IMG/VR virus record: IMGVR_UViG_3300045988_126062
Length of the DNA: 64,000 bases
Origin: a virus
Direction: 5' to 3' (one strand)
This document shows positions 1-49,460 of the stretch, piece after piece (within the stretch, counting starts at the first letter, position 1; the number at the start of each line of letters is the position of its first letter). The position numbers and the translations under genes were made by a program. The notes beneath the pieces were generated by a model. That model saw only the letters and a program-made list of their open reading frames with translations. It had not been told where the DNA came from and did no database searches.

Positions 1-205
1 CCAACAAAATTCAATAGATCAGCGTTTTAAAACAGCATTTTGTAGTTTCTACCAACAAAATTCAATAGATAAGCGTTTTAAAACAGTGTTCTGTAGATCA
101 TTTCCACAAAATTCAATATGATAAGGGTTTAAAACAGCATTATATAGGTTCCTTCCAACAGATTAAGAGTTAAGGACTGCATTATGTGAGTATTTTTTTC
201 AATCG
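1..205. repeat. About 3.5 tandem direct repeats of ~52 bp (units at ~1-51, 52-104, 105-156, degenerate 157-200), each containing the perfect palindrome GTTTTAAAAC; iteron/operator-like array that probably continues upstream of the window
   Basis: Read directly: the core CAAAATTCAATAGATNAGCGTTTTAAAACAG recurs three times with a decaying fourth copy. Confidence 0.8.
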
Positions 206-234
206 GAATGTATAACAATTAAAACATAAACAAC

Positions 235-495
235 ATGAACGTATATGACTTTGCGCCTGACTTAGATTTGAGTAAGGAGGTAGAAGGTTCTATTTTCGGG
301 GTAAAAGGAATAGAAGGCAGTGATGGAATAGTATATGCTAAGGTAGTTAGCTGTGTAGACGTTAAGGATTACAGTTGTGATAGGTGTATTTTTTATGATT
401 GTTATAAGGATAAATGTTTATTATCGCGTAGTGATAGTTGTATAGATGGAGATTGGATTTGTAGGTACGAACAGGCTGCCATAGAGGGGGAGTAG
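235..495 (+). CDS. Hypothetical small Cys-rich protein (86 aa)
   Basis: ORF track; 8 Cys in CxxC-like spacing; no recognisable family. Confidence 0.4.
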   Translation: MNVYDFAPDLDLSKEVEGSIFGVKGIEGSDGIVYAKVVSCVDVKDYSCDRCIFYDCYKDKCLLSRSDSCIDGDWICRYEQAAIEGE

Positions 496-688
496 GCGGC
501 GCCTTGGGTTAAGGCCTGCGGTTGTAGGTAGGGCGTAGGTCGGAGCAGAGCCGGAACAGTTTATTGTGGAACGTGAAAAGAACAGATAAAAAAGGAGGAG
601 ATATGAAAAAGATATTTAAGACATTCTCTATTATGCTTGTCAGGTGGTTATATACAACTTTACACCAAAAGCGTAAAATAGTACACAT

Positions 689-1864
689 TTATACGGAAAT
701 CCGTACCGGGTTCCACCAAAACCCTCTACCTTTTGGTAACATCGTTACATCAAAGGATTCTTTTTCTGATTTTCTAATGATGTTAAAAGCACCATTGATA
801 TCAGCATTGATGATCTTACCAAACGAGGTTTTAAACAATCCTCGTTTGATTCTTCTTCCTTTGTAAGATTCATGTTTGCAAATCCGTTCATTATCTAAAA
901 AGCTACATTTTGAAGTATAAGATTCTTCAACGATCTTAACATTGATTCCTTCTAATGTAGCTTTATAAGATATCATTGAGATAAACATATTAAAAGGAAT
1001 AGATACAAAGTTCTGATTATTACGTTTTCCGATATTGATCTCTTGTTTCCAGCATTTGTTATGACCGATTATGATCGTATTAATACCATTGGAAACTACA
1101 TGATTAACCAATATCCTACTTGCCTTATGAAGATAATCTTTGATCTTGTTATTCCTTTTGTTGGTTAATGACCTGATTTGTTTTGAAATTTGTTTGTTAT
1201 CTTTTAATTTAGATTTTAAGAATGCTAATCTTTTATTATAATATTGGTTGATAGACTTCAGTGGTCTACCATTGATGATAAAACAAGAGCCATTGTTTGA
1301 AACACAAGAAGCTAAATTATCTAATCCTATGTCGATACCAAGATAGTTTCCATTGTCAGACATAAGATTCTTTTCCTTCTTGTTGTAAACTATTTCAAGA
1401 ACAATATACCCATTCTTAGGAATGAATCTAAGTTGCTGAATATTTTGTTTATTGGTTCTTGTTGTAAAAGAAAACTGTTTTGGTAACTTAACAACACCTT
1501 GTTTTATCCATTTTTGAGAAAAAGATGCAGTCGTAAAAACAGCAGGAAACAAACCACCTTTGTTAAGATACTTAGGCATTCTTACTTCCTCGGAATACTC
1601 ACCTCTGTTCCTTTTATTTAGAAGATTGAAGAAAGATTTGAAGTTTCTATCAACCATCATCAACACTTGTTGAGCAACTGGTGCTGGTAAAGCACGATAG
1701 TCAACATCATTTTCTGCTCTTAGTTTCTTTTCAAGAGAATAGTAGTTAAGATATTTGTATTTTACAGTATTATCATTCTTGTATTGGAAATAGTGTTGTC
1801 TAACAACATACAATCCTTTGTTGTATAAGTTTTTTACACTTATGCAATAGGTCATAAAGTTCAT
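689..1864 (-). CDS. tnpB: TnpB (IS200/IS605-family OrfB RNA-guided nuclease), 391 aa, apparently intact RuvC triad
   Basis: RuvC-I LGIDIGLDNLA, RuvC-II ESYTSKCS, RuvC-III NADINGAFNI; partial zinc finger (SKCS...CKH, second Cys pair missing); typical TnpB length. Confidence 0.85.
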   Translation of the reverse strand: MNFMTYCISVKNLYNKGLYVVRQHYFQYKNDNTVKYKYLNYYSLEKKLRAENDVDYRALPAPVAQQVLMMVDRNFKSFFNLLNKRNRGEYSEEVRMPKYLNKGGLFPAVFTTASFSQKWIKQGVVKLPKQFSFTTRTNKQNIQQLRFIPKNGYIVLEIVYNKKEKNLMSDNGNYLGIDIGLDNLASCVSNNGSCFIINGRPLKSINQYYNKRLAFLKSKLKDNKQISKQIRSLTNKRNNKIKDYLHKASRILVNHVVSNGINTIIIGHNKCWKQEINIGKRNNQNFVSIPFNMFISMISYKATLEGINVKIVEESYTSKCSFLDNERICKHESYKGRRIKRGLFKTSFGKIINADINGAFNIIRKSEKESFDVTMLPKGRGFWWNPVRISV

Positions 1865-2177
1865 TATAATAAACAGAACTTGGCTTGATTGTATGTTGTT
1901 CGACTAATCTCATGACACAAATGTAGGAATTATTATTTATATATAAAAACAATTTGACATATTTGTGGTGTAAAGTAGTATATAATCACCAATTAGAATA
2001 GTATTTTTGTTAATCTATTTTATTCATCAAATTAAGTTTTGGGTTTTGGTATGTCGGTTCGTGAGGATAGGCATGCCTATTTCTGTATCATATAGGGGGA
2101 TGACGCGGCGTGCCGGCATGTATGTACCGGTCCTGGTTCGATTCTGGGCATCTCACAAACAATAAAACAAAAAAGTT

Positions 2178-2411
2178 ATGAGAATATATAAGAATGATAT
2201 TATAAAGGCGTCAGCAATAAGCACCGGAGCCGACAGAGGCGTGTTGCTGTGTTCAATAACAGATTCAGGCTTTACGTCTATAGCGGGCGTAATATCGGCT
2301 GTTAAGGATAGGTTACCAAACGAAGATCACAAGAAGATGGTTTTTGAAATCTTGAATGATACGAAAAAAGAGTACGGAAGATATAATAATTGCGGAACAA
2401 AAGTATTGTAA
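2178..2411 (+). CDS. Hypothetical protein (77 aa)
   Basis: ORF track only. Confidence 0.35.
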   Translation: MRIYKNDIIKASAISTGADRGVLLCSITDSGFTSIAGVISAVKDRLPNEDHKKMVFEILNDTKKEYGRYNNCGTKVL

Positions 2412-2465
2412 TAAAGAGTAGAAAACAATATGTTTATGTAATATTAGTTTTTTCATTTTTATTGA

Positions 2466-2510
2466 AAGGAGCGCCGGCCTGTGAAGGTATGCGCTCTTTG
2501 TATTTGTATA
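2466..2510 (+). terminator. Hairpin (AAGGAGCGC / GCGCTCTTT, 16-nt loop) followed by a T-rich stretch; putative terminator
   Basis: Inverted repeat read in sequence, downstream of ORF 2178..2411. Confidence 0.4.
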
Positions 2511-2530
2511 ATGCATAAAACAATAATAAT

Positions 2531-2785
2531 ATGACAGATAATAACATAGATGTGAATATCGTACCTGTAAAGAATGGTGCGAAACGTGTTGTGGTATCAT
2601 ATTACCATTATTCGCGCAAGGACAAAAATCACATGAGTTCCCAAACGGATTACGTGTGGGAAACAAAGAATGAAGAAATGTTTAAATACTTTGAGGCCAG
2701 GAGGACAAAAGTATTTTATAGTCAGATTCGTGCCATGTGTAGATTCTATGGCAAGAAAAATGTACGTAAATACAAAAAGTTATGA
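2531..2785 (+). CDS. Hypothetical protein (84 aa)
   Basis: ORF track. Confidence 0.4.
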   Translation: MTDNNIDVNIVPVKNGAKRVVVSYYHYSRKDKNHMSSQTDYVWETKNEEMFKYFEARRTKVFYSQIRAMCRFYGKKNVRKYKKL

Positions 2786-3591
2786 TATTAAAAACGACAA
2801 CCAACGAGTTTTGTTTCATTAACGTAAGTTTCTATGAAACAATAGCAGATCCTCGCTATTTCTTTGAACAAGATTATGAAGAGATGCCAGAATATGAGGA
2901 TGAATTAGATTTTGATTTTGATTCTTATTGCAATAAGTTTATTCCTTTTGTACAGGAATGGGCGAATAAGGTGGGCGAACGCCTTTATGAATATGGTGTG
3001 AATAACATAAAGGTAATATCGGTCGGACATCCAAAAGATCACAATTATGGTACTGATTGGATGGATGTAAGGGTAGAGTTTTGTGATGAATGGAGGCAAA
3101 AGATGTTATCTAACATTGGTAAGATTGCCAATGATGATAAATGCAAGAAGTATGCGGAGGCTAATTACCGGTCGGTATCAGGATACATCTTTTTAGGGCC
3201 TGAAGATTTAAAGGAATTTGAAAAGGAAATAATAGAAAGAAAGTCAGATTCGGAATATGATGTAACAATATTATTAAATATGTATCTAACTTTGGCTTTT
3301 GTAAAAGAATTTGGATTTAAAGCCGGAGAAGCATGGAGTGAAATAACAGAATATGCTTACGGATGTTTATCGTATTCCGATTTTGCAACAACAGAGATGC
3401 TTATACCGGAAGGTTCGGAGCATTTATTCAAAGACATTTACACGGCAAAGGCCGACGAATTATATCATCATGTCCTGGATAAATTCGGATGGGCGTGGCG
3501 TGATCCGAAATATAAGTCAGAAACAGAATTATGCGCGATGCTAAAGTGGGCAAAAGAAAAAGGCTTGACCATTGAAGAGTTAAGTATTTAA
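2782..3591 (+). CDS. Hypothetical protein (269 aa)
   Basis: ORF track; ATGA start/stop overlap with the upstream ORF. Confidence 0.5.
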   Translation: MILKTTTNEFCFINVSFYETIADPRYFFEQDYEEMPEYEDELDFDFDSYCNKFIPFVQEWANKVGERLYEYGVNNIKVISVGHPKDHNYGTDWMDVRVEFCDEWRQKMLSNIGKIANDDKCKKYAEANYRSVSGYIFLGPEDLKEFEKEIIERKSDSEYDVTILLNMYLTLAFVKEFGFKAGEAWSEITEYAYGCLSYSDFATTEMLIPEGSEHLFKDIYTAKADELYHHVLDKFGWAWRDPKYKSETELCAMLKWAKEKGLTIEELSI

Positions 3592-3618
3592 TTGTTAAAC
3601 ATAAGGCAGTAGTGGTGC

Positions 3619-3903
3619 GTGAGTATAGGTGCTGCCGTTAAAATATTTTATAAGATGAAAAAAGAAGAGATTCAAACTATTTTATACACAATCAAAGAAG
3701 GAGACAGTATTAAAATCAAAGTACAAGACAAAAGTGAAGAGATAAGACTGCGGGATCATGTAAGAAGAGTACAGAAATACGGATACAGGTTTTGTTTGTC
3801 TCATTTACATGATGGAATTTTCTATCTGGAGAAGTTGAAAGAAGGGGATAAGGATAAATACTATAGAGTAATAAACAGAGGAAATGGAAAGACCGGAGTA
3901 TAA
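3619..3903 (+). CDS. Hypothetical protein (94 aa)
   Basis: ORF track. Confidence 0.4.
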   Translation: MSIGAAVKIFYKMKKEEIQTILYTIKEGDSIKIKVQDKSEEIRLRDHVRRVQKYGYRFCLSHLHDGIFYLEKLKEGDKDKYYRVINRGNGKTGV

Positions 3904-4177
3904 TAAGCTACGCAAAATGGCTAAGACTACTCCAGGTCTGATAGTGGACGAGGTGCAAAACATGATGCGTGTATCGCTATACGATAATGGGGAACTTAAG
4001 AAGGTGGTAGTAGTAATGAAATGCGATTCTTTTTTACAGTCAAAAAGTAACATAGAAAAGATAATGTTATTATCATCTTCTATAGAAGATAGAAAAAACA
4101 AAGAAAAAAATAAAACAAAATCAGAAAATGAACAGAATAACAAAAATAAGAGAAGAAATAGGAGGAAAACAGGTTGA
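3884..4177 (+). CDS. Hypothetical protein with K/N/R-rich basic C-terminal tail (97 aa)
   Basis: ORF track; low-complexity basic tail. Confidence 0.3.
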   Translation: MERPEYNKLRKMAKTTPGLIVDEVQNMMRVSLYDNGELKKVVVVMKCDSFLQSKSNIEKIMLLSSSIEDRKNKEKNKTKSENEQNNKNKRRNRRKTG

Positions 4178-5985: not shown

Positions 5986-6497
5986 AAAAGATAAAAGTAG
6001 ACAAAGTGATATTATATTACATGGATCGGGTAGACCCTGACGGGAACCTATACCGGTTCTATGTATATAAAGACATGGCATCTGAAATAGAATACTTTTG
6101 CACGGAAGAGACAGGTAATATGACTATACCAATCGGAGAAGGAAAGTATATTGAAATCGTGCCAAGGGAAATAGTGAAAATACCGGTAAGGGGATATAGG
6201 AAGCTTACTGGAATATGGAATCGTGAAACATGTAACGGGAAGGGATGGTATAGGCTTTTTAATTATTTCAAATACAAGCCGACCCTATGTTATTTTAAAA
6301 AAGCTGGACATGATGAAAATGGGAACACAAGATACGAAATATCATTATTTAATAGCATTATAAATGTGACAAGATATTTTAATCTGTGGAGAATGAAGCC
6401 AGGAAAGTATGTTATGGTAACAAACGAGTGTGGAGCCTTGGATGTTATAAAAGAAAAATTTGACAACATAAATATAGTGGAATATGGATCTGAATGA
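5982..6497 (+). CDS. Hypothetical protein (171 aa)
   Basis: ORF track; overlap coupling. Confidence 0.5.
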   Translation: MKKIKVDKVILYYMDRVDPDGNLYRFYVYKDMASEIEYFCTEETGNMTIPIGEGKYIEIVPREIVKIPVRGYRKLTGIWNRETCNGKGWYRLFNYFKYKPTLCYFKKAGHDENGNTRYEISLFNSIINVTRYFNLWRMKPGKYVMVTNECGALDVIKEKFDNINIVEYGSE

Positions 6498-18062: not shown

Positions 18063-18224
18063 TCCAAAAAACAAACAAAATGGAAGAAAAAGAGATAAAA
18101 GAAGCTATGATTGAAGCCCTGACGCACTTAGAGGGGTGTAAGTATTTCGTGGCCACGATAGTAAATAATCGAGAATAATACATAACTCATACAAATCATA
18201 ACCAATTTGTATTGTATTATGCAT

Positions 18225-18463
18225 AATAGCCAAAAGCTATTCCGATTATTAGCCTAAGTGTTGAAACAAACACTACGTTATTTAAGAATAGATAGTTACC
18301 TACGGATATTTACCCAAGTCTGTAGCTCTAAGGTAGGTGATTAAACAGTTCTGGTATTCAGGAACAGTGTTGCTTACGAAAAACCTTAAATAACATTGGC
18401 GATGGGTACTAACAGAGTTTTACTCTGACTTATGTTGAATAAACATTAAAAACGTTTGTAGAT
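18225..18463 (+). ncRNA. IscB omega-RNA, copy A: variable guide-like segment (~18225-18246) plus conserved scaffold starting TATTAGCCTAAG at 18247 and running to the iscB start
   Basis: Directly upstream of an IscB gene; same scaffold found at 30020 and on the minus strand at 49345, with compensatory base changes in two stems. Confidence 0.65.
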
Positions 18464-19690
18464 ATGGTGTACGTACAAGACATAAATGGTAAACCTCTGA
18501 TGCCAACAACGAGGCATGGTAAGGTTAGGAGACTGCTTAAAGATAAAAAGGCAGTCGTTGTGAACCTATGTCCGTTTACCATCCGATTAACGTACGTAAC
18601 ATCTGATTACAAACAGGAAATTGTGTTAGGCGTTGATGCTGGAACTAAGCATGTTGGTTTATCAGCAACGACGAAAAGCAAAGAACTTTACAGCAGTGAA
18701 GTAATTCTTAGAAATGATATCGTAGATCTTTTGTCTACCAGAAGAGAGCTACGAAAAACAAGACGGAATAGATTGAGACATAGAAAACATCGTTTTAACA
18801 ATAGAATAAAAAGTAGGCGTCCCGGATGGACAGCACCTTCGGTGAAATACAAAGTAGACGCCCATATTCGTGTTATTGACAATGTATGTTCTATATTACC
18901 AATATCTCGTATTGTTATCGAAGTAGCTCAATTCGATACTCAAAAGATTAACAATCCTAATATATCAGGTAAAGAATATCAGGAGGGTGATCAACTTGGA
19001 TTTTGGAACGTTAGGGAATATGTTTTAGCAAGAGATGGACATAAATGCCAGCATTGCAAGGGAAAGTCAAAAGACCCAGTATTGAATGTTCATCATATTG
19101 AATCACGAAAGACAGGTGGAGATTCCCCATCTAATCTTATTACCTTATGTGAAACTTGTCATAAAGAATACCATAAAGGTAATATAGATTTAAAAATCAG
19201 AAGAGGCAAGTCGCTTCGCGACGCAGCCGTAATGGGAATAATGAAATGGAGATTGTATGAAGAACTAAAATCTAAATACGACAACATTTCTATGACTTTC
19301 GGTTATGTTACAAAATACAATAGGATTAAACATGGTATTGAAAAATCTCATGTTTTCGATGCATTTGTTATTTCTAAAAACTTTGATGCTATAAGGTTAG
19401 GATATTATTATAAAGTAAGATTAGTAAGAAGACATAATCGTCAGATCCATAAACAAAAGATTCCAAAAGGAGGAATCAAGAGGTTAAATCAATCTCCATT
19501 TGAAGTTTTTGGTTTCCGTTTGTTTGATAGGGTTATGTTTGAAAACAGTTATTACTTTATATTTGCAAGGCGTAAAACCGGTAGTTTTAATATTCGAGAT
19601 ATTGATGGTAAAAACCAAAGAGATATTACATACAAGAAATTGAAATTATCAAGGTGTAAACGCTTTATGGTACAAAAGGAAATGGATTGA
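18464..19690 (+). CDS. iscB: IscB RNA-guided nuclease (PLMP, RuvC-I, Arg-rich bridge helix, RuvC-II, HNH, RuvC-III), 408 aa
   Basis: PLMP motif; RuvC-I LGVDAGTKHVG; bridge helix RRELRKTRRNRLRHRKHRFNNR; RuvC-II IVIEVAQFD; HNH HKCQHCKG...NVHHIESRKTGGDSPSNLITLCETCHKEYH; RuvC-III HVFDAFVIS. Confidence 0.85.
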   Translation: MVYVQDINGKPLMPTTRHGKVRRLLKDKKAVVVNLCPFTIRLTYVTSDYKQEIVLGVDAGTKHVGLSATTKSKELYSSEVILRNDIVDLLSTRRELRKTRRNRLRHRKHRFNNRIKSRRPGWTAPSVKYKVDAHIRVIDNVCSILPISRIVIEVAQFDTQKINNPNISGKEYQEGDQLGFWNVREYVLARDGHKCQHCKGKSKDPVLNVHHIESRKTGGDSPSNLITLCETCHKEYHKGNIDLKIRRGKSLRDAAVMGIMKWRLYEELKSKYDNISMTFGYVTKYNRIKHGIEKSHVFDAFVISKNFDAIRLGYYYKVRLVRRHNRQIHKQKIPKGGIKRLNQSPFEVFGFRLFDRVMFENSYYFIFARRKTGSFNIRDIDGKNQRDITYKKLKLSRCKRFMVQKEMD

Positions 19691-29830: not shown

Positions 29831-29999
29831 AGCAAAAGCAGCATTTATAGATTTCCTGCCGGCAGGGACAGTGCTTTACTAATTATAATATTTTTAACAT
29901 GGATTTTGGACAAGATTTAGAACCAGAAGAACTGACCGGGCATTATGATCGGTGTTATAACCCCAAATAGTATTAACCCAATATAATTCTATTATAAAA

Positions 30000-30268
30000 G
30001 TTTAATACATCTCTTTCAGAGATCGGGTTATTAGCCTAAGCCTTGAAACAGAGGCTACGTTATTTGAGAATAAATAGTTACCAAGGAATGTTTATCCAAG
30101 TTTCTTGCTCTAAGGATGGTGATTAAACAGGAGTAGTGTATTTGACGAAACAGTGTTGCCATTATATAAAACCTCTTATAACATTGGCGATGGGTACTTA
30201 CAGGAGAAATCATGACTTATCCCTAACGGGATTTACATCTACCAAGGAGACCGGAAGGTCTCCGAGGG
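30000..30268 (+). ncRNA. Orphan omega-RNA-like scaffold, copy B (no adjacent IscB): distinct 5' guide-like sequence, scaffold from 30020, 3' end replaced by GGAGACC-ggaa-GGTCTCC hairpin (30246-30263)
   Basis: Aligns with copies A and C over ~170 nt; stems retained through compensatory changes (GTGTT/AACAC vs GCCT/AGGC; CTAC/GTAG vs CAAG/CTTG). Confidence 0.6.
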
Positions 30269-47904: not shown

Positions 47905-49143
47905 TTACTTTAATATAATCGGATGCCTCTTCCCTCTAATGAGTTTAAACTTTTTGCGTGAAACATCTTTTGAATTTTCTCCGTTGAAATCCCTGATATT
48001 GAAACTCCCTGATTTTCTCCTTCCATAAACAAAACATATTTTATTATTATACAACACTTTATCAAACAACCTAAAACCAAAAACCTCAAAAGGAGCTTGA
48101 TTGTTTTTCTTCTTTCCTCCTTTTAAAATTTTCATTTTATGTATTTGCCTATTATGCCTACGAATTAAACGTTTTAAATATTGACATCCGATTCGTTTCG
48201 CATTAATGTTCTTAGAAATGACAAACGCGTCGGATGTATGGGATTTTTCAATCCCGTATTTAATCCGATTATGTTTCGTAATGTAACCAAACGTCATAGA
48301 AACTCTGTCGTATCTGGATCTCAGTTCTTCATACAACTTCCATTTCATGATCCCCATTACGGCCGCGTCGCGGAGCGACGATCCCCGTTTGATCTTCAAA
48401 TCTATATTACCTTTATGGTATTCTTTGTGACAAGTTTCACATAAGGTAATAAGATTAGAAGGGGAATCACCTCCCGTTTTTCGGGATTCAAGATGATGGA
48501 CATTAAGGATCTTATCTTTTGACTTCCCTTTACAATACTGACATTTATGCCCATCCCTTGCTAAAACATACTCCCTTGTGTTCCAAAACTCAAGTTGATC
48601 ACCTTCCTGGTATTCTTTACCTAATATTTCAGGATTCTTAATCTTTTGAGTATCAAATTGAGCTACTTCAATAACAATACGAGATATTGGTAGTATAGAG
48701 CAAATATTTTCAATAACACGAATATGAGCGTCTACTTTGTATTTCACCGAAGGTGCTACCCATCCTGGACGCTTGCTTTTTATTCTATTATTGAAACGAG
48801 GTTTTCTATACCTCAACCTATTCCGTCTTGTTCTTCGTAGCTCCCTTCTGGTAGACAAAAGATCTACGATATCATTTCTAAGGATCACTTCACTACTGTA
48901 AAGTTCTTTGCTTTTCGTTGTAGCTGATAAACCAACATGTTTAGTACCAGCATCAACGCCTAACACGATTTCTTGTTTGTAATCAGATGTAACGTACATT
49001 AATTTGATGGTAAACGGACATAGGTTTACAACGATTGCCTTTTTGTCTTTAAGCAGTCTCCTTACCTTACCATGCCTCGTTGTAGGCATCATAGGTTTAC
49101 CATTTATATCCTGTACGTACACCATACTTACAAACGTTTTCAA
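47905..49143 (-). CDS. iscB: IscB RNA-guided nuclease, second copy (412 aa; about 90% identical to the copy at 18464; alternative start MVYVQ at 49122)
   Basis: Same PLMP, RuvC-I/II/III, bridge-helix and HNH motifs as copy 1; C-terminal ~25 aa diverge. Confidence 0.85.
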   Translation of the reverse strand: MKTFVSMVYVQDINGKPMMPTTRHGKVRRLLKDKKAIVVNLCPFTIKLMYVTSDYKQEIVLGVDAGTKHVGLSATTKSKELYSSEVILRNDIVDLLSTRRELRRTRRNRLRYRKPRFNNRIKSKRPGWVAPSVKYKVDAHIRVIENICSILPISRIVIEVAQFDTQKIKNPEILGKEYQEGDQLEFWNTREYVLARDGHKCQYCKGKSKDKILNVHHLESRKTGGDSPSNLITLCETCHKEYHKGNIDLKIKRGSSLRDAAVMGIMKWKLYEELRSRYDRVSMTFGYITKHNRIKYGIEKSHTSDAFVISKNINAKRIGCQYLKRLIRRHNRQIHKMKILKGGKKKNNQAPFEVFGFRLFDKVLYNNKICFVYGRRKSGSFNIRDFNGENSKDVSRKKFKLIRGKRHPIILK

Positions 49144-49368
49144 TGTTTATTCAACATAAGTCAGAGTAAAACTCTGTTAGTACCCATCGCCAATGTTATT
49201 TAAGGTTTTTCGTAAGCAACACTGTTTCGCAAATACACTACTCCTGTTTAATCACCCACCTTAGAGCTACAGACTTGGGCAAACATCCGTAGATAACTAT
49301 CTATTCTCAAATAACGTAGCCTTCGTTTCAAGGCTTAGGCTAATATCCGGACCATTTATGGTACATTA
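49144..49368 (-). ncRNA. IscB omega-RNA copy C (minus strand): scaffold 49345 down to 49144, guide-like segment ~49346-49368
   Basis: Reverse complement aligns with copies A and B; directly upstream of the iscB start. Confidence 0.65.
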
Positions 49369-49460
49369 AAACCTTATAATGAAATTATATTGTTTTAATG
49401 TTATTTCGGATATGAAAACAAATTCGCCACCGTATCTTTTATTAGCCAATTCTTCTACAG

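Follow-up and report, generated by a model that had tools for sequence, protein, structure and literature searches.

The function of TnpB has been worked out for the IS200/IS605 and IS607 families, where excision is scarless, and its role in transposons moved by DDE transposases is open (PMC13565253). The same review names ISL2, IS630 and IS1031 as DDE partners of TnpB, and a survey describes DDE-associated TnpB branches with inverted terminal repeats, and solo copies presumably mobilised in trans (Altae-Tran et al. 2023, PMC10691335). Here we analysed the tnpB locus found near the start of a 64,000-nucleotide stretch of viral DNA (IMG/VR record IMGVR_UViG_3300045988_126062; hereafter the window, meaning the stretch at its full length). 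We consider it probable that window positions 643-1990 hold a non-autonomous IS1595-family DDE element of epsilon crAss-like gut phages, which carries tnpB and its omega-RNA as cargo, is moved in trans and spreads by homing.

As in the DDE-associated branches, TnpB lies here inside a transposon with terminal inverted repeats (TIRs), the 3' end of tnpB is less than 250 bp from the element end, and mobilisation in trans is presumed for solo copies. What differs is the IS1595 partner, the 8-bp target-site duplications and the spread in crAss-like phages together with miniature inverted-repeat transposable elements (MITEs) and omega-RNA-only derivatives; the term "IS1595" does not occur in the survey's main text. 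By analogy, the Fanzors that reside in transposons with TIRs and target-site duplications are the closest functional analogue. In the Fanzor1 element of Spodoptera frugiperda ascovirus (PMC10711439), too, a nuclease of TnpB/IS607 ancestry has been captured by a cut-and-paste transposon, and that element is likewise non-autonomous, carries the nuclease only, sits in a viral genome and has its TIR as part of the guide-RNA scaffold. Here, however, the virus is prokaryotic and TnpB is a compact protein of 407 aa; moreover, the duplicated bases are apparently the first guide positions, with a target-adjacent motif (TAM) upstream, whereas the Fanzor1 duplication is reported as part of the scaffold. 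The IS607 type, with its TnpA and TnpB, provides the closest TnpB that has an adjoining transposase gene (57% identity), but our element has no serine recombinase, has TIRs and 8-bp duplications, and ends differently on the right. With IS200/IS605 elements of the IS1341 group it shares tnpB as the only gene and a predicted omega-RNA that extends over the right end and the gene's 3' end, while the TIRs and duplications, a motif 8 bp from the left end and the likely DDE mobiliser set it apart. Finally, IS1595 elements with passenger genes have repeats that start with GGTGATTAT, 8-bp duplications and, in the passenger-carrying sisters, DDE_Tnp_IS1595 together with a zinc ribbon; in our element the transposase is lost, and an RNA-guided nuclease and its predicted guide RNA are carried.

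The main features of the locus are the following.

643-1990, minus strand: complete non-autonomous transposon of 1348 bp with tnpB as its sole gene, delimited by homology breaks
1967-1990, no strand assigned: left-end TIR, GGTGATTATATACTACTTTACACC on the minus strand, matching the right repeat at 22 of 24 positions
643-666, no strand assigned: right-end TIR, also the 3' arm of the terminal hairpin in the predicted omega-RNA
689-1864, minus strand: main frame of tnpB, 391 aa, residues 11-391 corresponding to residues 27-407 of the family consensus
1800-1913, minus strand: detached N-terminal piece of tnpB, starting MRLVEQHTIKPSSVYYNELYDLLHKCK and then running out of frame to a stop
643-792, minus strand: predicted omega-RNA scaffold of four hairpins, from RNAalifold and covariation
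623-642, minus strand: predicted guide, 5'-UGACAAGCAUAAUAGAGAAU-3', placed by position with an assumed length of 16-20 nt
481-560, no strand assigned: GC-rich island outside the element, in conserved phage intergenic DNA

The ends of the element were located by comparison with an empty site and with sister copies. The best database relative of the window is the epsilon crAss-like phage crAssE-Sib (OR575929; PMC11054128), which is 90% identical over window positions 5-642; homology to it ends at 642 and restarts at 1991, and crAssE-Sib has no TnpB at that site. The window TnpB has 579 relatives in IMG/VR contigs, mostly phage contigs of 80-160 kb and at many positions, and in the 80 copies that were fetched the similarity to the window starts exactly at 1990 and stops exactly at 643. 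Copies located elsewhere are 94-98% identical to the window tnpB. The extent given in the initial annotation, 480-2040, is thus replaced by 643-1990. The window contains the two 24-bp TIRs as its only repeat matches, with 0 expected by chance.

Sister copies occupy dozens of different sites, many of which are flanked by 8-bp duplications. In the family to which the window copy belongs (family A), 13 perfect duplications and 3 with one mismatch were found among 47 distinct flank pairs. A second family (B; 42% protein identity to family A, 291 viral copies), often present on the same contigs, has homologous repeats and 9-10 target duplications of 8 bp. Altogether, more than 25 independent perfect 8-bp duplications were counted, each with a chance probability of about 1e-4. 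Relatives in other phages at 58-60% TnpB identity already have a right end of the repeat type, while no clear inverted repeats were seen around the TnpB homologues of phage G and a Staphylococcus phage (43-46% identity), and a search of a plasmid collection returned distant TnpB matches only. Because the element has inverted repeats and duplications, it was excluded from the IS200/IS605 and IS607 families (PMC13565253, PMC6188088). Two other sources of the 8-bp repeats were considered and rejected: TnpB cleavage, as the repeat abuts the motif described below rather than lying 15-21 bp away, and a serine recombinase, as such enzymes make no duplications.

Repeats that start GGnnATTAT and are flanked by 8-bp duplications we take to point to the IS1595 family. 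In the classification of Siguier et al., the ISNwi1 group of IS1595 reportedly has ends reading ggnnatTAT and 8-bp repeats, and to our knowledge none of ISL2, IS630 and IS1031 makes 8-bp duplications. Both 8-bp duplications and GG termini have been described for IS1595/Merlin (PMC8101967). A scan of viral contigs with a repeat pattern built to skip the inner sequence of the TnpB type found elements of 2.8-4.9 kb and many MITEs (183, ~330, 64 and 246 bp) with the same repeats; overall, the transposase-carrying elements range from 2.8 to 5.9 kb. The large elements each encode a protein of 301-309 aa that matches DDE_Tnp_IS1595 (E 1e-42 to 1e-48) and in most cases also Zn_ribbon_IS1595; they likewise have 8-bp duplications, and their passenger genes encode KilA-N or P63C domain proteins (e.g. 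L273 470-4153, L263 6144-11007). The viral contigs contain 237 IS1595-type transposase genes, and a transposase and a TnpB copy reside on one contig in L327/L065 (3300045988_104829), L340/L063 and L361/L152. The repeats of L224, L238 and L292 equal the family-A repeat over 23 nt and that of L216 equals the family-B repeat, and the flanks of L224 are 93-94% identical to the window. The transposase gene itself is missing from the window element and from the window, and is present only in the sister elements, which makes the former a non-autonomous member of the IS1595 family. Given the shared ends, the duplications and the co-residence, an IS1595-type transposase of the sister elements likely moves the TnpB element in trans. 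The initial annotation had noted that tnpA is absent, which we confirmed: no Y1, serine or DDE transposase was found in the 40 window open reading frames (ORFs) scanned, i.e. all of at least 150 aa except two giant ones. Its proposal of mobility in trans agrees with the lack of a transposase gene beside tnpB, while the enzyme would be an IS1595-family DDE transposase and not a Y1 TnpA. None of 160 copies is adjoined by a Y1 TnpA, and at a length of 1.32-1.35 kb the elements are too short to hold one.

The repeat scans also returned loci of other kinds. The transposase element of L224/L324 lies between sequences that match window positions 6474 and 11804 and lacks a duplication; this points to a further deletion or replacement of ~5 kb associated with the element. 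The 183-bp MITE family has 31-34 copies (with the 64- and 246-bp MITEs in L205-L323, viral contigs), and some MITEs are inserted directly beside the end of another element. Other types of TnpB occur within such repeats: a 1507-bp element (L221 1553-3059) encodes a 301-aa protein with OrfB_IS605 and HTH_OrfB_IS605 and without a TNB match, and a 1741-bp element (L314 6872-8612) with the same kind of repeats encodes a 403-aa TnpB. A scan of bacterial genomes was run with a pattern that contained one extra N and is uninformative on the presence of the element there; its 21 matches were variant repeats only, with no transposase nearby. In Rikenella, Tidjanibacter and Alistipes (Rikenellaceae; L171 6114-6254, L172 5120-5179, L181 2819-3169), MITE-like elements of 60-220 bp lie between pairs of these variant repeats, which are longer by one base; this may give a faint hint of the host clade.

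The minus-strand ORF of 391 aa that had been reported is present and matches OrfB_IS605 (E 3e-22) and Cas12f1-like_TNB (E 1.5e-12). It also keeps the RuvC D/E/D residues, as had been stated: D178, E314 and D355 stand in the motifs IDxG, EESYTSK and NADxNG, which are invariant across 4 homologues (43-45% identity). A profile of the homologues matches TnpB/Cas12f structures, where a PDB search with the single sequence gave no match; the C4 zinc finger is not conserved. In contrast to its description as intact, the window tnpB is interrupted by an extra A at 1830-1835, which puts 26 N-terminal codons out of frame. The family consensus is a protein of 407 aa that starts at an ATG at window position 1913 (MRLVEQH...), and an uninterrupted ORF of this length and start is found in the sister copy L002 (2923-4146). 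The A run has five residues in 50 of 52 distinct 5' ends and six in the window and L067, so that the full-length frame from 1913 ends after 37 codons in the window, while the 391-aa ORF begins at an out-of-frame ATG and lacks the first 26 residues. The sixth A is either a real frameshift or a homopolymer sequencing error, and the window copy correspondingly either inactive or mis-sequenced. The nearest TnpB with an adjoining transposase gene, P0099 (57% identity), directly follows a Resolvase-domain gene of the IS607 type. This active-looking IS607-type element of 1.88 kb (L187 3341-5224; L188, L190), encoding a Resolvase-domain TnpA and the 395-aa TnpB, was seen in three different contexts at 99% identity. 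The TnpB homologue of Prevotella phage Lak-A1 (L082, ~1040-2244, tnpB strand; 46% identity) has in-frame stops when read in the standard code, which would agree with an alternative genetic code.

In order to model the 3' end of the element, RNAalifold was applied to 31 distinct family-A 3' ends. The predicted structure spans 643-756, overlaps the end of tnpB, includes the right repeat and consists of the following parts.

756-752/733-729 enclosing 748-744/740-736, minus strand: hairpin 1, from RNAalifold
724-719/713-708, minus strand: hairpin 2, from RNAalifold
706-702/695-691, minus strand: hairpin 3, across the stop codon, from RNAalifold
687-672/664-649, minus strand: terminal hairpin, whose 3' arm is the right TIR
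648-643, minus strand: scaffold tail of 6 nt, from RNAalifold
717-714 (GGUG) with 646-643 (CACC), minus strand: candidate pseudoknot or closing helix, from covariation and the minimum-energy fold

Within family A, 97.9% of the cells are paired, and 8 pairs are changed on both sides; shuffles gave 1.7 +/- 1.0 such pairs, with 0/500 as high as observed, and slid controls gave 0-4. For families A and B jointly, 93.4% of the cells are paired and 28 of 37 pairs are changed on both sides, against 16.9 pairs in shuffles and 8-10 in slid controls, although the fitting of this cross-family alignment to the model structure inflates the pairing. Frequent G-U wobble pairs on the tnpB strand favour a sense-strand RNA structure over one that would also form on the opposite strand. 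Concomitantly, the third-codon-position entropy of family A falls from 0.5-0.67 to 0.24-0.28 over 784-689, the last 96 nt of the ORF. The window scaffold folds with a z-score of -3.24 and its minimum-energy fold contains the GGUG/CACC helix; family B has GGUA and UACC at these places, which weakly suggests a pseudoknot adjoining the guide, with one covarying position and essentially one evolutionary event. Known omega-RNAs have a pseudoknot next to the guide (PMC10711439).

A covariance model of the structure matched family-B right ends (E 1e-13 to 1e-8), the Lak homologue (1e-7) and phage G (4e-4), and scored 87-104 bits on TnpB-less derivatives of ~330 bp and 947 bp. It gave nothing significant on the transposase-carrying elements or the 183-bp MITEs that share the repeats, and no match in the IS607-type relative. 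No Rfam family was found for the four-hairpin structure with the whole window searched at gathering threshold. Taken from this comparative model, the structure at ~790-643 (minus strand) is probably an omega-RNA scaffold. The guide would then run from 642 down to ~623, a position that follows from the abrupt stop of the copies' similarity right after the right end; this stretch runs antisense to the first part of a small phage ORF. The TnpB-less family-A derivatives (L207 3615-3937, L213 2499-2835, L270 9278-9615, L291 3043-3372, L235 729-1675) keep the left end and the whole predicted scaffold and show the motif described below, and that of L207 occupies the same exact site as the window element. 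The ~330-bp and 947-bp derivatives are possibly guide-RNA-only free-riders.

Empty sites were reconstructed from copies with target duplications. For family A, the three positions directly 5' of the duplication read T (14/16), W (16/16) and A (15/16), and all 16 duplications open with T; family B has TAA followed by A in 10/10. In neither family is the motif mirrored where the duplication ends. The motif (TWA-T or TAA-A, the hyphen marking the start of the duplication) accompanies 24 of 26 TnpB elements, against 3/22 or 6/22 autonomous elements, depending on the orientation in which these 22 transposase-carrying elements with duplications are read (Fisher p 2.6e-8 and 3.6e-6), and it is found in 4/4 omega-RNA-only derivatives. 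At occupied sites, the match to the guide extends over only 8 nt of the left junction, and ACC stands in place of the motif at the right one. As a motif followed by a guide match is the geometry that a TAM requires, TnpB could cut empty alleles and yet spare both junctions. On this pattern of sites, we read TWA-T and TAA-A as the putative TAM footprint of homing.

In the mechanism that we propose, the TnpB element would be mobilised in trans by an IS1595-type transposase, through DDE chemistry of the cut-and-paste or the replicative kind, and nested right-end deletions, that of the window included, would be by-products of this chemistry. The scaffold would be transcribed from the tnpB strand over ~790-643, overlapping the last ~100 nt of the ORF, with the guide read from the flank: the duplicated 8 bp and downstream DNA in a normal insertion, and 642-~623 in the window copy. 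An empty allele would then present the guide-matching sequence preceded by TWA (family A) or TAA (family B) as TAM. Cleavage by TnpB would be confined to the unoccupied alleles of co-replicating phage genomes, into which the element would be copied by recombinational repair. The window copy itself is degraded, with 26 codons separated by the 1-nt insertion and the right duplication lost via an adjacent deletion.

The reading suggested by the initial annotation amounts to a classical IS200/IS605 element (IS1341-type) with its omega-RNA in the GC-rich island at 496-560, a guide at 476-495 and a Y1 TnpA acting in trans. The TnpB domains are present, and the island downstream of the stop codon is indeed GC-rich (0.57-0.62 over 451-570, compared to ~0.3 around it), but it is not structured beyond expectation, as 490-570 folds like shuffled sequence (z -0.34 and -0.47 on the two strands), and the TnpB locus has no Rfam match (E<=1 over 1-4000; gathering threshold over the whole window). 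Furthermore, the island lies outside the element and is nearly identical (~97% conserved) in the TnpB-less crAssE-Sib, and the proposed guide is plain phage DNA beyond the element end at 643. The omega-RNA in the island fails because the empty-site comparison, a check that the initial annotation had itself suggested, places the ends at 643 and 1990. IS200/IS605 end features were looked for at the element and were absent; in their place stand TIRs and 8-bp duplications, which IS200/IS605 lacks (PMC13565253). We regard this explanation as having next to no chance of being correct. Under another explanation, the element is of the IS607 type, its own serine recombinase is gone, an IS607 TnpA mobilises it in trans and the 8-bp repeats are coincidental; the Resolvase-domain gene beside P0099 speaks for it, while the many independent perfect duplications, ends unlike those of the IS607-type relative and identical inverted repeats bounding IS1595 transposase genes speak against it, as does the fact that serine recombinases make no duplications (PMC6188088), and it appears very improbable.

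Two further explanations concern the 3' structure and the target motif. In one, the 3' structure serves termination, mRNA stability or transposase binding, and TnpB is decaying or exapted cargo without homing. The frameshift in the window tnpB, the overlap of the last hairpin with the inverted repeat and one terminator-like match on the opposite strand of the structure region would fit this. However, the structure is missing from the transposase elements and the 183-bp MITEs and whole in the ~330-bp derivatives, and it extends through ~100 nt of the ORF with suppressed synonymous variation. A full reading frame is kept in 50 of 52 distinct 5' ends, and the position and size of the structure fit known TnpB omega-RNAs, as described in PMC10711439 and PMC10691335. 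We therefore find a non-guide role unlikely. The other explanation, which we doubt without dismissing it, holds that the transposase subfamilies responsible for moving families A and B insert preferentially at this motif, which would then be no TAM enriched by homing. A preference for AT-rich targets, with T at position 1 and A at position 8, is seen in the autonomous elements as well, and few sites represent the cognate subfamily. Yet the motif is one-sided and oriented with tnpB and the omega-RNA although the repeats are nearly identical, it separates the TnpB elements and omega-RNA-only derivatives from the autonomous ones as counted above, and the base that opens the duplication is T in family A and A in family B.

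Several points weigh against a homing IS1595-family element as set out here. The evidence for the TAM is indirect, and a lineage-specific transposase preference is possible: the sampled autonomous elements come from several transposase subfamilies (52-100% identity), and only two autonomous sites are from a subfamily whose repeats match those of family A. The window flank reads CTA and not TWA, its tnpB is frameshifted so that this copy may yield no active nuclease, and no transposase gene was found in the window. On the RNA side, the ends of the omega-RNA and the guide length are predictions from sequence, and the inflated cross-family pairing and the single event behind the pseudoknot count on the same side. 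Finally, cut-and-paste DDE excision already leaves a break, and the benefit of TnpB is debated (PMC13565253).

The history of the window copy can be followed from its flanks, which are as follows.

1991-2001, minus strand: left flank, with the left copy of the 8-bp duplication at 1991-1998 (TTCTAATT) and CTA at 1999-2001
603-642, plus strand: start of a small phage ORF (MKKIFKTFSIMLV...), truncated by the element, endpoint of a ~1250-bp adjacent deletion

The CTA occupies the position of the TWA motif, and crAssE-Sib, as read directly from the alignment, also has ...TTCTA before TGACAAGC. L002 has the left flank of the window, carries TTCTAATT on both sides of the element and is otherwise colinear with crAssE-Sib; judged from these junctions, it is a simple insertion with an 8-bp duplication into a Sib-like empty site. 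The window and L003 have the left flank in common. At the right end, the junction falls at crAssE-Sib position 1274 in the window and at 1214 in L003, and L002 shows no deletion. By the same comparison, the window and L003 represent nested deletions anchored at the right end. Because the deletion adjoins the right end, the window copy is without its right-hand duplication and the ORF that starts at 603, annotated in crAssE-Sib (L001 1196-1315), is truncated.

Elsewhere in the window, a tandem 51-bp unit (3.1 copies, 80% match) at 1-160, upstream of ORF 235-495, is present in crAssE-Sib too. The frame of ORF 235-495 stays open through the GC-rich island (493-574, plus strand) except for two TAGs, the second of which is TGG in crAssE-Sib; this is probably chance, and TAG/TGA recoding, tried as an explanation of the island, had no support in the ORF statistics of the window. 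A second GC-rich island at 2040-2160 (plus strand; 0.47-0.58), conserved in crAssE-Sib, has a tRNA-like GGTTCGATTC T-loop motif and possible acceptor pairing; it received no ARAGORN or Rfam call, and shuffled sequences fold as well as it does. No tRNA was called by ARAGORN anywhere in the window, and scanning for sigma-70 promoters and terminators gave no more matches than expected by chance. Two IscB-like genes, each with RRXRR and HNH (18464-19690, 408 aa, plus strand; 47905-49125, 406 aa, minus strand), are each preceded by a HEARO RNA (Rfam RF02033; 106 and 89 bits), forming units at 18198-19690 (plus) and 47905-49413 (minus), and an orphan HEARO RNA without an adjoining IscB gene lies at 29957-30201 (plus strand, 95 bits). 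With tnpB, the two IscB-like/HEARO pairs and the orphan HEARO, the window thus holds three nuclease units of the OMEGA kind and one solo omega-RNA.

Tentatively, and with somewhat more doubt than confidence, we propose that an IS607-lineage TnpB and its omega-RNA were captured by IS1595-type transposons circulating in crAss-like phages and that the scaffold was rebuilt on the TIR. As the first guide positions would come from the 8-bp duplication, homing would be limited to insertions placed immediately 3' of a TAM and would leave a one-sided TWA-T or TAA-A footprint, which transposase-only elements lack. The element would then be an RNA-guided gene drive between co-infecting phages, with ~330-bp omega-RNA-only elements free-riding on TnpB provided in trans, and a prokaryotic-virus counterpart of the Fanzor capture by eukaryotic TIR transposons. 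For the role of TnpB in DDE transposons, these phages offer a natural comparison within one lineage and with the same ends, as hundreds of TnpB copies, omega-RNA-only derivatives, MITEs and transposase elements occur side by side, and the oriented target motif appears only where the predicted omega-RNA is present. The family also provides a compact 407-aa TnpB with a predictable scaffold and a putative AT-rich TAM. For annotation, the locus is a warning that GC content is a poor guide to omega-RNAs and that ends of the IS605 type are not general for TnpB. In the crAss-like phages themselves, these elements reshape the genome through insertions and nested deletions.

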